This document shows, one piece after another, positions 11,770 to 36,116 of a DNA stretch of 47,226 nt (position 1 is its first letter; each line of letters starts with the position of its first letter). A model generated the notes under the pieces. That model searched no databases, was not told the origin of the DNA, and saw only the letters and a list, made by a program, of their open reading frames with translations. The DNA is from an uncultured bacterium (lineage in GTDB: Bacteria > Hydrothermota > UBA3073): positions 1 through 47,226 of the forward strand of contig CAYRBN010000001.1 in the NCBI GenBank assembly GCA_964422625.1, given 5' to 3'. The position numbers and the translations under genes are program-made.

Positions 11770-13752
11770 CTAAAAATCCTGGATATGCTCCCCTATGTTT
11801 GAGGCATGGAAATTTATCCGCTCAAGGTCTGAAATAAGGTCAAGATGCACGGTGCTGGTCTCTATCGATTCCGGAATCCTCTTCCTCAAGCGATCAAGAT
11901 GTCTATCATGGTATTTTGATAAAAGTTTCCTTCCCTCTCTGCCTCTTTTGACAACCTCCATAGCTAAAGCAGTGTCAGATGTAGCAAGTGCATTTATTGC
12001 CATTCCAAGCGTCTCTTTTGAAAACTCTGTAAATTCCTCTAACTCCATGAACCCCTTTTCTGAAAACAGAAACCCCTTTTTTATCTTCTTTTCCGCGTAG
12101 ATCATAAGACTCTTGGAGACAATATCCCCTATATGTTCAAACTGGTCCACTATATGGAGTAATTTTGCACTTCTCTTTGAAAGTTCCAGCGATACCTCCT
12201 CTTGTGACATCTTGATGAGATAGAGGGTTATATTCTCCTCCATGGCATCAACCCTATCATCATCCTTAACAAGCCTTGCCCTCTCGGTCTCCTCGTCTGT
12301 TCTGATCACTTCTATAGAGCGGGAAAGCATTGAGTGAACAATATCTGCCATTCTCAATATCTCCCTCAGTGCCTGTGCAATTGCGATTGTTGGTGATGAG
12401 AGTAGTGTATAATCAAGATAACGGGGTTGAAACTCGGTCTTTTTCTTGGGGATAAGTCGCTTTATCAATCTTGCATAAGGCATGAGCAGTGGTAAGAACA
12501 ATAAAGCAGAGAAGAGATTGAAGAGCGTATGTGCATTTGCAACCTGTCTTGGAGCAGAGCCAGGTATGTATCCCACAAGGGTGGCAAACTGGGGTATAAA
12601 TGGGAGGAAGATAGCCGCCATAATAACCCTGAATAGTATATGTGCAATGGCTACTCGCTTTGCCTCCACGCTTCTGCCGAGAGAGGCAAGTAAGGCTGTT
12701 ATTGATGTTCCTATATTTGCACCCAATATGATTGCTATAGCAGTTTGAAGATTTATCAACCCCTCAAATGAGAGTGCAAGGACAATTGCCATCGTAGCTC
12801 CTGATGCCTGGATTACGGCACTGAATAGGCTTGAGAGAACAAGCAGGGAAATATGATATTCTCCGATGCTCATAAGCTTATCAGTAACTCCGGGGAGGAA
12901 TGTGAGTGGATGAATTGCATCTGTCATAAGCTTCATGCCAAAGAATATGAGCCCAAATGAGAATATAACCCTGCCTGCATAGTGAATCCTTTTACCCTTT
13001 CCAAGTATCATCATAAAAAAACCGCCCGCAATAATGAGAAGTGCTATATCAAACACCTTAAATGCAATCAGTTGCACAGTCAATGTGGTTCCTATCCCTG
13101 CTCCAAGAATAACGCCAAGTGTCTGGACAAAATTTACAAGCCCTGCCTCGGCAAATGAGACAAGCATAACCGTTGTCGCTGAACTTGACTGCGTAAGTAT
13201 CGTGATGAATATACCAACAGCCACCCCAACAACAGGATTCTTTGTCATCCTCCACAGAAGCTCCCTTAACTTACCACCTGCTATTCTTGTGAGTGCCTTG
13301 CCACCAAAGTTGAGCCCATACATAAACAGAGCAAAGCCCCCTAACAGGCCAATTATTAGAAAGAAGAGAAAACCAGACCTCATCGCAATGTAGGAAAGCC
13401 TGACACCCTCCTCTGATAGAGGAGAGGTTGCAGAAAGCCAGTATTCACCCTCCATGTCTCCAGCCCCAAGAGAGAATATTGCATAGCCTCTTGAGTCTGT
13501 TGTTGCAGTGAAGATGGTGTTCAGGTATCCCTTATCTACCCCAGGCGGAGCAGATATAATTCTCAGGCTTACAGGAACTTCCTTCTGGGGAACACCCTCG
13601 TTATCTGTCACCTCAATAATCATAGGAGAGGGAAGTTTCGCACCCACGGTTGCCACCATCCCATCTCCTGATATATCATCTCCTCTTGCATCCCTTGCCC
13701 TTGTAAGGTAGAAAGGGTGAAGAAGAAGTATTATACATAGAAGACCGCTCAT
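11770..13752 (-). CDS. Na/Pi cotransporter family protein with C-terminal PhoU-like domains and an N-terminal Ig-like extension
   Basis: Multi-TM NaPi core (QSSSATT...) plus a PhoU-like helical tail. Start moved to ATG 13752 (MSGLLC...) because the track's TTG start lies on top of a consensus promoter. Confidence 0.85.
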   Translation of the reverse strand: MSGLLCIILLLHPFYLTRARDARGDDISGDGMVATVGAKLPSPMIIEVTDNEGVPQKEVPVSLRIISAPPGVDKGYLNTIFTATTDSRGYAIFSLGAGDMEGEYWLSATSPLSEEGVRLSYIAMRSGFLFFLIIGLLGGFALFMYGLNFGGKALTRIAGGKLRELLWRMTKNPVVGVAVGIFITILTQSSSATTVMLVSFAEAGLVNFVQTLGVILGAGIGTTLTVQLIAFKVFDIALLIIAGGFFMMILGKGKRIHYAGRVIFSFGLIFFGMKLMTDAIHPLTFLPGVTDKLMSIGEYHISLLVLSSLFSAVIQASGATMAIVLALSFEGLINLQTAIAIILGANIGTSITALLASLGRSVEAKRVAIAHILFRVIMAAIFLPFIPQFATLVGYIPGSAPRQVANAHTLFNLFSALLFLPLLMPYARLIKRLIPKKKTEFQPRYLDYTLLSSPTIAIAQALREILRMADIVHSMLSRSIEVIRTDEETERARLVKDDDRVDAMEENITLYLIKMSQEEVSLELSKRSAKLLHIVDQFEHIGDIVSKSLMIYAEKKIKKGFLFSEKGFMELEEFTEFSKETLGMAINALATSDTALAMEVVKRGREGRKLLSKYHDRHLDRLRKRIPESIETSTVHLDLISDLERINFHASNIGEHIQDF

Positions 13753-13791: not shown

Positions 13792-13848
13792 GGGATTTTT
13801 AATTAGATTAGTCAACAGGTGGAGTGGCTTGCTCCATCTGTTATTGCT

Positions 13849-13985
13849 AATATTAGCACACAGATTTACACAGATAAAACTGATTTACACAAATATAATT
13901 CATTATAAAGATTTTTTTAAATCTGTGCCTATCTATTCAATCTGTGTAAATCTGTGTGCTTCTCCTCTTTTTTCCTTGACTTTTT
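13849..13985 (+). repeat. palindromic MITE-like element, copy 1, carrying an outward TTGACT box
   Basis: Perfect 21-nt terminal inverted repeats AGCACACAGATTTACACAGAT (13855-13875 / 13940-13960). About 137 bp near-identical to 24753-24891, including ...cttgacttttt. Confidence 0.85.
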
Positions 13986-14004
13986 ATAAAGAATGTGTTA
14001 AAAT
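13976..14004 (+). promoter_or_regulatory. promoter TTGACT-17-TAAAAT facing the DegT gene
   Basis: -35 at 13976-13981 (inside the repeat element) and -10 at 13999-14004. The CDS starts about 480 nt downstream, with a MITE in between. Confidence 0.55.
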
Positions 14005-14104
14005 AAGTTGTAACTTGAGGGGTAGAGAAAGAGAAGATGCTTCCGATGAATACCGGGACAGAGGCTGTAGAGACCGCAAGAAAATGGGGATACCTTATAA
14101 AAGG

Positions 14105-14386
14105 GGTTCTTCGCGCTTTTAGTTGGTTCAAATGCCGACCAAATGCTATAGGGATTTGAGAATATGGCTTATTGTATTTAAGAGGTAATACCTTTTTCGT
14201 TTTATAAGTAGGAGCTTTCTAAAAAACGGCTTTCAAAAATGTAGGCACGATTTCAAATCGTGCTAGCACAAATTGAATTTGTGCCTACAAATGCTCTAGG
14301 TGAACAGTCTTATATACAAATATGCAAAGAGCGCAAATTCAAGGAGGTTTGTCCATATATTCTACCAACTAAAAGAGCGAAGAACC
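14105..14386. mobile_element. non-autonomous MITE: 23-bp TIRs and 8-bp target-site duplication
   Basis: GGTTCTTCGCGCTTTTAGTTGGT (14105-14127) matches the reverse complement of 14364-14386 at 22/23. ATAAAAGG occurs directly on both sides (14097-14104 and 14387-14394). No ORF inside. Confidence 0.85.
14240..14289 (+). repeat. 50-nt double-hairpin element (copy inside the MITE)
   Basis: TGTAGG-[GCACGATTtcaaATCGTGC]-ta-[GCACAAATTgAATTTGTGC]-CTACA. A reverse-complement copy lies at 36067-36116. Confidence 0.85.
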
Positions 14387-14489
14387 ATAAAAGGAAAGAG
14401 GAGGAAGAGATAGGTGGATAACCTGAAGACTGCCTAACAGTCTATTATCAGTTTTTTTAACAATACTGATTATTAGAAAAGGGGAGAAT

Positions 14490-15578
14490 ATGATAAGATT
14501 GATAGACCTGTGTGAAGAGTATGAGGTGATAAAAGAGGAGATAGATGAGGGTATACGAGAGATAGTCACAAACCAACAGTTCATTGATGGAGGGCATATT
14601 GGAGGATTTGAGAAGGAGTTTGCAGACTATCTCGGTGTTAAACACTGTATTGGGGTAGGGTCCGGGTCTTGTGCCCTTGACCTTGCACTCCTTGCCCTCG
14701 GTATTGGTGACGGTGATGAGGTGATAGTCCCAAGCTTTACATTCATCGCGACTGCTGAGGCGGTCTCACATATCGGGGCAAAACCAGTATTTATTGATTC
14801 AGACTACAAAACCCAGAACATAGATGTTGATAAGATAAAATCTCTTATGACCACTAAAACAAAGGCTGTTATCCCTGTCCATCTCTATGGAAACCCCTGT
14901 GATATGGATAATCTTATCAGGGTTACAGAAGAGAATGGGCTCAAGATTGTAGAAGATTCTGCCCAGGCACAGGGAGCCGTATATAATGGGAAAAAGGTAT
15001 CCACAATTGGTGATGTGGGTGCTTTCAGTTTCTACCCTGCCAAAAATCTTGGGGCTTATGGACACGCAGGAGCTGTGGTAACAGATGACGATGAGATTGC
15101 CGAGAGGATAAGACTTCTTGCAAATCATGGTAGAACAACCCACTATGCCCATATGATACCAGGATACAATTACAGAATGGATTCTATTCAGGCAAAGGTT
15201 CTCTCTATAAAACTTCAGCACCTGAATGAATGGAATAGAAGAAGAAGAGAGATTGCAGATATCTACTCATCTGCTCTTAATGACCTACCTATTCAACTGC
15301 CAGAGGATAATGGTTCTGTATATCATCTTTATGTTATAAGAACAGAAAAGAGAGAGGAACTTGCAGACTGGCTCAAAGAGAAGGGTATAGAAACGAGAAT
15401 TCACTATCCTCTTCCTCTACATCTGCAACCTGCATATAGAGACCTCGGGTATAAGGAGGGAGATCTTCCGGTCTCAGAAAGGCTTGCAAAAGAGGTTCTA
15501 TCTCTACCTCTCTATCCATATCTTAAGAAGGATAGGGTCTGGACAGTGATAGAGAGAGTGAAGGAGTTCTTCTCATAG
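14490..15578 (+). CDS. DegT/DnrJ/EryC1/StrS family sugar aminotransferase
   Basis: 362 aa with family-typical FE.EFA.YLG, IVPSFTFIAT and FYPAKNLGA motifs. RBS is GGGGAG. Confidence 0.9.
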   Translation: MIRLIDLCEEYEVIKEEIDEGIREIVTNQQFIDGGHIGGFEKEFADYLGVKHCIGVGSGSCALDLALLALGIGDGDEVIVPSFTFIATAEAVSHIGAKPVFIDSDYKTQNIDVDKIKSLMTTKTKAVIPVHLYGNPCDMDNLIRVTEENGLKIVEDSAQAQGAVYNGKKVSTIGDVGAFSFYPAKNLGAYGHAGAVVTDDDEIAERIRLLANHGRTTHYAHMIPGYNYRMDSIQAKVLSIKLQHLNEWNRRRREIADIYSSALNDLPIQLPEDNGSVYHLYVIRTEKREELADWLKEKGIETRIHYPLPLHLQPAYRDLGYKEGDLPVSERLAKEVLSLPLYPYLKKDRVWTVIERVKEFFS

Positions 15579-19935: not shown

Positions 19936-20282
19936 TAATGAATTTGTTATAATACAGCGAACAGTCTGGAATATCATAAGATAGGCTTTCTAATCTTGAA
20001 GGTATGACCTTTCATACTATTACGAAAATTGAGGAAGGGGTCCCACCAGACTAAAGAATTGAGACCATTAAAAAAAAACAGGTTATTCTCCAATTTAGTT
20101 ATGGACTCTGCGAGTTGGTTTAAACAGTAACCTTTATACTGGATAGTTCTAATAATATAGCTTTTTGTATTTAAGAAGTAATCTATTTTCGGAGAATAAG
20201 CATAATTATTTAAGACAATAGGGGATAAAGTAGATTTTAAGTCCACTGTGTCTACCTATTCCATCATCTTGGCACATGGGTC

Positions 20283-24690: not shown

Positions 24691-24752
24691 GTTCGTATTG
24701 TGGGAGGCATCTCCTGATGCCGATGGTCAAGGTCAGGAGACCTTTCCCACAT

Positions 24753-24891
24753 AATATTAGCACACAGATTTTCACAGATAAAACTGATTTACACAAATAT
24801 AATTCATTATAAAGATTTTTTTTGAAATCTGTGCCTATCTATTCAATCTGTGAAATCTGTGTGCTTTTCCTCTTTTTTTTCTTGACTTTTT
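24753..24891 (+). repeat. palindromic MITE-like element, copy 2, carrying the holA -35 box
   Basis: TIRs are AGCACACAGATTTTCACAGAT (24759-24779) and ATCTGTGAAATCTGTGTGCT (24846-24865). The interior is near-identical to copy 1. Confidence 0.85.
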
Positions 24892-36066: not shown

Positions 36067-36116
36067 TGTAGGCACAAATTCAATTTGTGCTGGTACGATT
36101 TGAAATCGTGCCTACA
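36067..36116 (-). repeat. 50-nt double-hairpin element (inverted copy)
   Basis: Reverse complement of 14240-14289 with 2 mismatches. Confidence 0.85.

Follow-up and report, generated by a model that had tools for sequence, protein, structure and literature searches.

The 5' region of a DegT-family aminotransferase gene from an uncultured WOR-3 bacterium contains 282 bp located between a promoter-like site and the start codon, which raises the question whether this piece is a mobile insertion or a structured leader belonging to the gene. The stretch of DNA analysed (the window, 47,226 nt) is contig C1 of genome G000, an assembly of 1.49 Mb in 154 contigs that is 97% complete and has 41% G+C. 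A preceding sequence-only reading had described the piece as an intact MITE with 23-nt terminal inverted repeats and an 8-bp target duplication, containing no ORF. The features that define it are as follows.

14105-14386, plus strand: non-autonomous MITE, very probably of the ISL3 type, 282 bp
14105-14127, plus strand: left terminal inverted repeat, GGTTCTTCGCGCTTTTAGTTGGT
14364-14386, minus strand: right terminal inverted repeat, one mismatch against the left one
14097-14104: left copy of the target-site duplication, ATAAAAGG, read directly in the sequence
14387-14394: right copy of the target-site duplication, ATAAAAGG, read directly in the sequence

Re-measurement of the inverted ends gave 22 complementary positions out of 23 (96%), and the duplication, when re-read, was exact at all eight positions directly outside both ends. 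With up to three mismatches allowed, the end motif occurred at just these two sites in the 47-kb window and in none of 100 dinucleotide-preserving shuffles. The ORF listing contained no frame entirely within the 282 bp, in agreement with the earlier description. Three frames touch the element, namely a 53-aa frame starting with GTG (14260-14421) and two frames of 40 and 97 aa that enter from the left flank.

BLAST and end-motif searches of the own genome revealed nine MITE copies with both ends and at least eight more that have one end or are truncated. The two-ended copies are listed below.

C1 14105-14386: 282 bp
C6 3854-4135: 282 bp
C23 17593-17809: 217 bp
C38 2730-2946: 217 bp
C94 3731-3954: 224 bp
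C5 20140-20393: 254 bp
C6 18153-18339: 187 bp
C14 47-251: 205 bp
C46 8984-9264: 281 bp

Perfect duplications (8/8) were present at four of these copies (TTAAAAAT, TAACCTAA, TTATTTTT and the window's own) and duplications matching at seven of eight positions at two others (TAACATTT/TAAAATTT and AGTTCTTA/AGTTGTTA); the remaining three have degenerate ends and no duplication. The flanks of the MITE copies are unrelated to each other, and all six copies for which neighbouring ORFs were listed lie between ORFs. With its inverted ends, an adjoining target duplication, a short body without a transposase gene and dispersed copies in unrelated flanks, the element is a MITE.

Comparison of the ends distinguished two subtypes, GGTTCTTC-GCGCT-TTTAGTTGG and GGTTCTTC-TCCAA-TTTAGTTGG, with the same variant at both ends within each. 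The subtype to which the window's copy belongs (GCnCT) was seen in G000 alone out of 272 WOR-3 genomes and comprises four copies with pairwise identities of 92-99%, from which we infer a recent lineage-specific burst. The copies on C23 and C38 have a 65-bp internal deletion in common, yet each has its own site and its own perfect duplication; the deleted derivative itself thus appears to have transposed. A degenerate member of the family, truncated to its left half, is also present in the window at 20081-20200; it is of the TCCAA subtype, has a 16-nt insertion within the end and lacks the right end.

The interior of the element carries the 50-nt double-hairpin module that had been noticed earlier, located at 14240-14289. 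Two features were assigned within or next to it.

14241-14288, plus strand: GTAG-tagged REP doublet, consisting of GTAG plus GCACGATTTcAAATCGTGC (14241-14263), a TA spacer, and GCACAAATTgAATTTGTGC plus CTAC (14266-14288)
14235-14263, minus strand only: intrinsic-terminator-like site, the first REP hairpin followed by CTACATTTTT

Two palindromes of different sequence make up the doublet; they are inverted relative to each other and both carry an unpaired GTAG tag on the outer side. The arms of the doublet (14240-14264 and 14265-14289) are 84% complementary. Judged by the published description of REPs (a GTAG tag next to a 20-40-nt palindrome; PMC3733652), the module has the expected unpaired tag beside a palindrome and forms an inverted doublet able to fold into one long hairpin. 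The 50-nt module recurs in the window at 36067-36116 on the minus strand with two mismatches. Genome-wide, one or both hairpins were found at about 30 loci, roughly half of them within MITE copies. Solitary doublets with sharp boundaries and unique flanks were found, for example, at C1:36068-36115, C15:3226-3273 and C58:293-340, and genomes that belong to the same class but to other families frequently contain single hairpins of 96-100% identity. The right flank of the solitary doublet at 36068-36115 (minus strand) also occurs at C17:3080-3127, which places the doublet in a second composite repeat as well. On sequence criteria, the internal module is a separate REP-type, REPIN-like repeat and not merely a feature of the MITE. 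Since MITE copies in other genera carry the doublet at the same position, it was already part of the ancestral MITE. Every internal deletion known from this MITE family ends within or next to the doublet, and several half copies start exactly at it; this fits a role of the doublet as a hairpin-prone hotspot of deletion or recombination.

The same breakpoints, together with the REP features of the doublet and its occurrence alone in unique flanks, could also be read as signs that the MITE was moved wholly or partly via the doublet by a RAYT enzyme of the single-strand Y1 type, its inverted ends being relics. A single RAYT gene was indeed identified in the genome (C53:165-497; NF047646, 112.9 bits against a cut-off of 80). 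However, the perfect 8-bp duplications that directly border the inverted ends are a hallmark of a DDE enzyme acting on the whole unit and not of Y1 activity, and no 282-bp units without duplication located 3' of a fixed tetranucleotide were seen. Moreover, inspection of the region around the RAYT gene (C53:1-800; gene of 154 aa) for the MITE's own REP was negative: a tandem GTAG-type REP of different sequence, GTAGTAGCGTAGCTTTAGCTACGC, lies downstream of the gene, and several different GTAG/CTAC hairpins lie upstream. Because RAYT is flanked by a different REP, a link between it and the MITE doublet is put forward as a possibility, and mobilisation of the MITE by RAYT is very unlikely.

A transposase of the DDE type with matching ends was found in related genomes. 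All eight genomes of the taxonomic family contain the MITE family and the end motif; a control with the reversed pattern gave no matches. Fetching of unpaired end-motif matches from the relatives recovered two full insertion sequences.

Locus L048, genome G001: full ISL3 element, 1,378 bp, ends at 101 and 1478, transposase ORF of 401 aa
Locus L052, genome G003: full ISL3 element, 1,342 bp, ends at 81 and 1422, transposase ORF of 406 aa

Both elements are bracketed by the same ends as the MITE (GGTTCTTC-N5-TTTAGTTGG). Their ORFs of 401 and 406 aa match DDE_Tnp_ISL3 (E 3e-76 and 5e-75, respectively), HTH_Tnp_ISL3 and Zn_ribbon_ISL3, and the G001 protein, the sole ORF scanned against the NCBIfam equivalog transpos_ISL3, scored 331 bits against a cut-off of 180. 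The exact match to this transposase identified G001 as candidate division WOR-3 bacterium UBA3073. Across many phyla, 204 relatives of the transposase were recovered when species-representative genomes were scanned. At 80 transposase-encoding loci that were kept, the motif GGTTC(T/A)TC-N5-TTAGTTG(G/A) was scored with up to five mismatches, and at least one match was found in 72, again from many phyla. The match is mostly located at an end of the 1.32-1.38-kb element, a few loci having internal, chance-like matches only. Perfect 8-bp AT-rich duplications flank 13 of 22 full-length ISL3 elements, and one further element has a 7/8 duplication. It is the ends and the duplication length common to the MITE and this clade that form the basis for ISL3 parentage, and the insert is very probably an ISL3-type MITE.

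Duplications of 8 bp (or 8-9 bp) and ends starting with GG are also known for IS6 and IS256, and a derivation from IS6/IS26 or IS256 instead of ISL3 would also account for these two traits. Every full-length element with the end motif, however, encodes an ISL3 transposase, and searches of the 97%-complete, 154-contig assembly revealed neither an IS6 nor an IS256 transposase. Such an origin is most improbable.

The absence of a cognate transposase from the window, reported earlier, extends to the whole assembly. Neither a PF01610 search nor tblastn with both sister transposases returned a match at E<0.1 in the own genome, a result to be read with the caveat that copies of insertion sequences are often left unassembled. 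An autonomous element with GCnCT ends was likewise absent from the 272 WOR-3 genomes and the 80 ISL3 loci. Beyond the ends of about 22 bp, the MITE has nothing in common with the ISL3 elements, as judged by eye from the end sequences, and descent by internal deletion is therefore not supported by this comparison. In G003, the autonomous ISL3 element is accompanied by a full-length MITE of 80% identity, which is the arrangement expected if MITEs of this family are mobilised in trans.

We propose that an ISL3 DDE transposase, supplied in trans, would have recognised both 23-bp inverted ends, and that the element would have been inserted at an AT-rich site, where repair of an 8-bp staggered cut would have produced the ATAAAAGG duplication. 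The GCnCT subfamily would then have spread recently in the G000 lineage, its deleted form moving too. Given that the 97%-complete assembly lacks an ISL3 transposase, the driver may since have been lost, in which case the copy would now be stranded, or it may reside within unassembled repeat sequence.

The surroundings of the insertion were analysed over the whole DegT upstream region, where the following features were assigned.

13847-13985, plus strand: repeat B, palindromic, about 135 nt, with a T-rich tract; its right end is the -35 box; outside the MITE
13976-14004, plus strand: sigma-70-type promoter-like site, TTGACT-17-TAAAAT with a TG extension, 10 of 12 matches
14037-14104, plus strand: class-III (ornithine/acetylornithine-type) aminotransferase relic, MLPMNTGTEAVETARKWGYLIK, about 22-25 codons, ending at the insertion site
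14480-14486, plus strand: Shine-Dalgarno-like AGGGGAG, ending 3 nt before the DegT ATG
14490-15578, plus strand: DegT/DnrJ/EryC1-family aminotransferase gene, 362 aa, intact; full-length PF01041 match, E 5e-125

The promoter postulated earlier at 13976-14004 is real as a consensus match (10/12) and is the sole promoter-like site on the DegT strand upstream of the gene. The MITE was inserted 100 nt past its -10 box and 103 nt before the DegT start codon. On the other side, the Na/Pi-cotransporter-PhoU gene is divergent from DegT, with a likely start at 13752 and a 12/12 promoter at 13791-13763.

The -35 box is provided by the end of repeat B, of which about 41 forward copies with 87-97% identity were found in the own genome and none, at E<=1e-8, in any of the family's seven other genomes. 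The repeat has palindromic arms of 20 nt (GCACACAGATTTxCACAGAT) and a T-rich tract, and TTGAC(A/T) forms its right end. When the copies were anchored on TTGA, TATAAT appeared 17 nt downstream with 69-86% conservation per position, against a background rate of 6% for such a -10 box; TG precedes the -10 in 60-67%, and the spacer sequence is not conserved. This promoter class, with its -35 box taken from the end of B, has about 30-43 members. The next ORF begins at a median of about 35 nt after the -10, and the window copy, with 485 nt, is an outlier. It is possible that repeat B acts as a portable promoter, or terminator-promoter, module; neither a target duplication nor a clean mobile boundary could be established for it. 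A second copy of repeat B in the window lies at 24752-24891.

The relic that ends at the insertion site corresponds to residues ~97-127 of ornithine aminotransferases in the PDB (phmmer, E 1.2e-4), and the genome holds no second copy of it. The 40-aa ORF at 14037-14159, which one public contig annotates as a gene, was rejected as a real gene, as it is the relic read through into the MITE end. In 7/7 related genomes, a HIT-family gene and a gene for a 135-aa membrane protein directly precede DegT on the same strand, and in the own genome these two genes were located on contig C147 (C147:44-917), away from DegT. The end of that contig (C147:1-60) runs into heptamer repeats. Dozens of intergenic sites, as well as contig ends, carry tandem heptamer arrays (GGCGTAG-like and GGAGACA-like). 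Because the -35 box stems from the end of B, a relic abuts the insertion and DegT belongs to a different operon in other genera, the DegT upstream region is best described as a rebuilt, repeat-derived young mosaic into which the MITE landed.

Contigs from metagenomes were used to examine the site in populations. Of nine independent contigs with an identical DegT, all carry the filled site or break inside the MITE, and MITE copy C38, examined by an identical-protein look-up with a neighbouring gene, was filled in 4/4 contigs. The junction expected of an empty site, in which CCTTATAAAAGG is directly followed by AAAGAGG, had no match in metagenome contigs when searched as an exact 27-mer, and the 20-mer gave 19 matches, all at one unrelated locus. 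No base-level empty site was readable in the seven related genomes either, as gene order upstream of DegT is not conserved. The MITE at DegT is fixed in every population sample examined. Thus, among the checks proposed with the sequence-only reading, the search for further copies succeeded in the own genome (nine two-ended copies) and in each of the seven remaining genomes of the family, that for a transposase-bearing parent succeeded in sister genomes, and an empty site was not seen. All proposed tests that could be run were favourable to a MITE, the copies having their own 8-bp duplications.

Most of the metagenome contigs break inside the element, and the gene order upstream of DegT is unlike that of related genera, as might be expected if an assembler had misjoined the Na/Pi-transporter side and the DegT side at a repeat. 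This is highly improbable, since two independent assemblies from different samples, L062 (55.9 kb) and L063 (34.2 kb), span the whole region from Na/Pi gene through B, relic and MITE to DegT at 99.7-99.9% identity.

The predicted RNA fold of the element has a free energy of -93.6 kcal/mol, with the ends paired and z = -6.8. This stability and the position between promoter and coding sequence are what a locus-specific structured DegT leader (riboswitch, attenuator or sRNA), in which the pairing only mimics inverted ends, would lead one to expect, but as an origin of the piece such a leader is already refuted by the dispersed copies at many unrelated loci with their own 8-bp duplications, and the DegT orthologues of seven related genomes, placed in a different operon, have no element; the remaining chance for it is negligible. 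The comparison with Rfam yielded no family for the element, only spurious miRNA-type hairpin matches to the neighbouring palindrome.

For the MITE, the consequence at the RNA level would be a leader in which its two ends form a long stem by pairing. Terminator prediction was negative on the plus strand, the sole terminator-like site of the element being on the minus strand. It is rather likely that the MITE is co-transcribed with DegT as part of a leader of about 480 nt starting from the B-type promoter. With regard to DegT expression, the element is by default regarded as a neutral, tolerated passenger.

A more far-reaching scenario, which we consider unlikely, is that the DegT control region was assembled wholly from mobile non-coding modules. 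DegT would have been excised from the HIT/membrane-protein/DegT operon and re-promoted by B (about 40 copies, with a T-tract and a -35 placed exactly 17 nt from TATAAT at about 30 genes), the MITE with its REP doublet would have inserted afterwards into the new leader, and the MITE stem would now serve as an element of RNA processing or stability. If true, this would mean that a small genome rewires its transcription via mobile promoter cassettes and MITEs.

Taken together, the insert is a real but ordinary MITE whose parent family can now be named as ISL3. In itself, this amounts to routine annotation of a MITE family, together with the parental ISL3 element, in WOR-3, for which metagenome-assembled genomes were the only source here. 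The insert also explains why metagenome contigs break 145-271 bp upstream of DegT, and the GCnCT subfamily offers a dated, lineage-specific marker for strain tracking. The intergenic regions of this 1.5-Mb genome are stacked from the ISL3 MITE, REP doublets plus RAYT, heptamer arrays and the promoter-linked repeat. Repeat B, which lies outside the MITE coordinates, is the most interesting by-product of the analysis.

MITEs derived from ISL3 are already on record, and the window's element is a further example: in Methanosarcina acetivorans, a 179-bp MITE with six copies, 22-bp inverted repeats and a 7-bp duplication is partnered by ISMac21 of the ISL3 family (PMC3852290). In common with ISL3 elements and the MITEs derived from them, the window's element has ends of about 22-23 bp starting with GG and an 8-bp AT-rich duplication; like these MITEs it is short, non-coding and multi-copy, and it would be mobilised in trans. 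It differs from the known ISL3-derived MITEs in its WOR-3 host, in an interior that is unrelated to the insertion sequence and in the REP doublet inside. Its GCnCT ends, moreover, have no known autonomous partner, and the transposase is absent from the genome.

Classical bacterial MITEs include Correia/NEMIS of Neisseria, which duplicates TA, and RUP of Streptococcus pneumoniae, which derives from IS630. Parent families and duplication lengths thus differ between these and the window's MITE. MITEAba12 of Acinetobacter is another classical bacterial MITE (PMC6382973). Similar to Correia/NEMIS, RUP and MITEAba12, the window's element is intergenic, has inverted ends with a duplication and would form a stable RNA stem from its ends; insertion beside promoters and co-transcription with neighbours, predicted here, are further likenesses. 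In a further difference, the window's MITE is not known to contain a promoter or an IHF site or to be processed by RNase III.

For the internal 48-nt module only, a second group of known systems is relevant. REPINs and RAYT transposases were reportedly described by Bertels and Rainey in 2011. In contrast to such REP/REPIN systems, the single RAYT gene of the genome is flanked by another REP sequence, and the module has a moderate copy number (about 30 loci), half of it being inside the MITE. GTAG-tagged REP dimers, including heterodimers with 1-2-nt spacers, have been described by Di Nocera et al. (2013, PMC3733652), and the same work reports that in Anabaena such dimers can lie within longer palindromic repeats. 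The module resembles these dimers in its unpaired GTAG, its palindrome of about 19 nt, the inverted pairing and the 2-nt spacer. Its stems differ, which makes it a heterodimer, and like REP dimers it also occurs as a solitary unit in a genome that encodes a RAYT.
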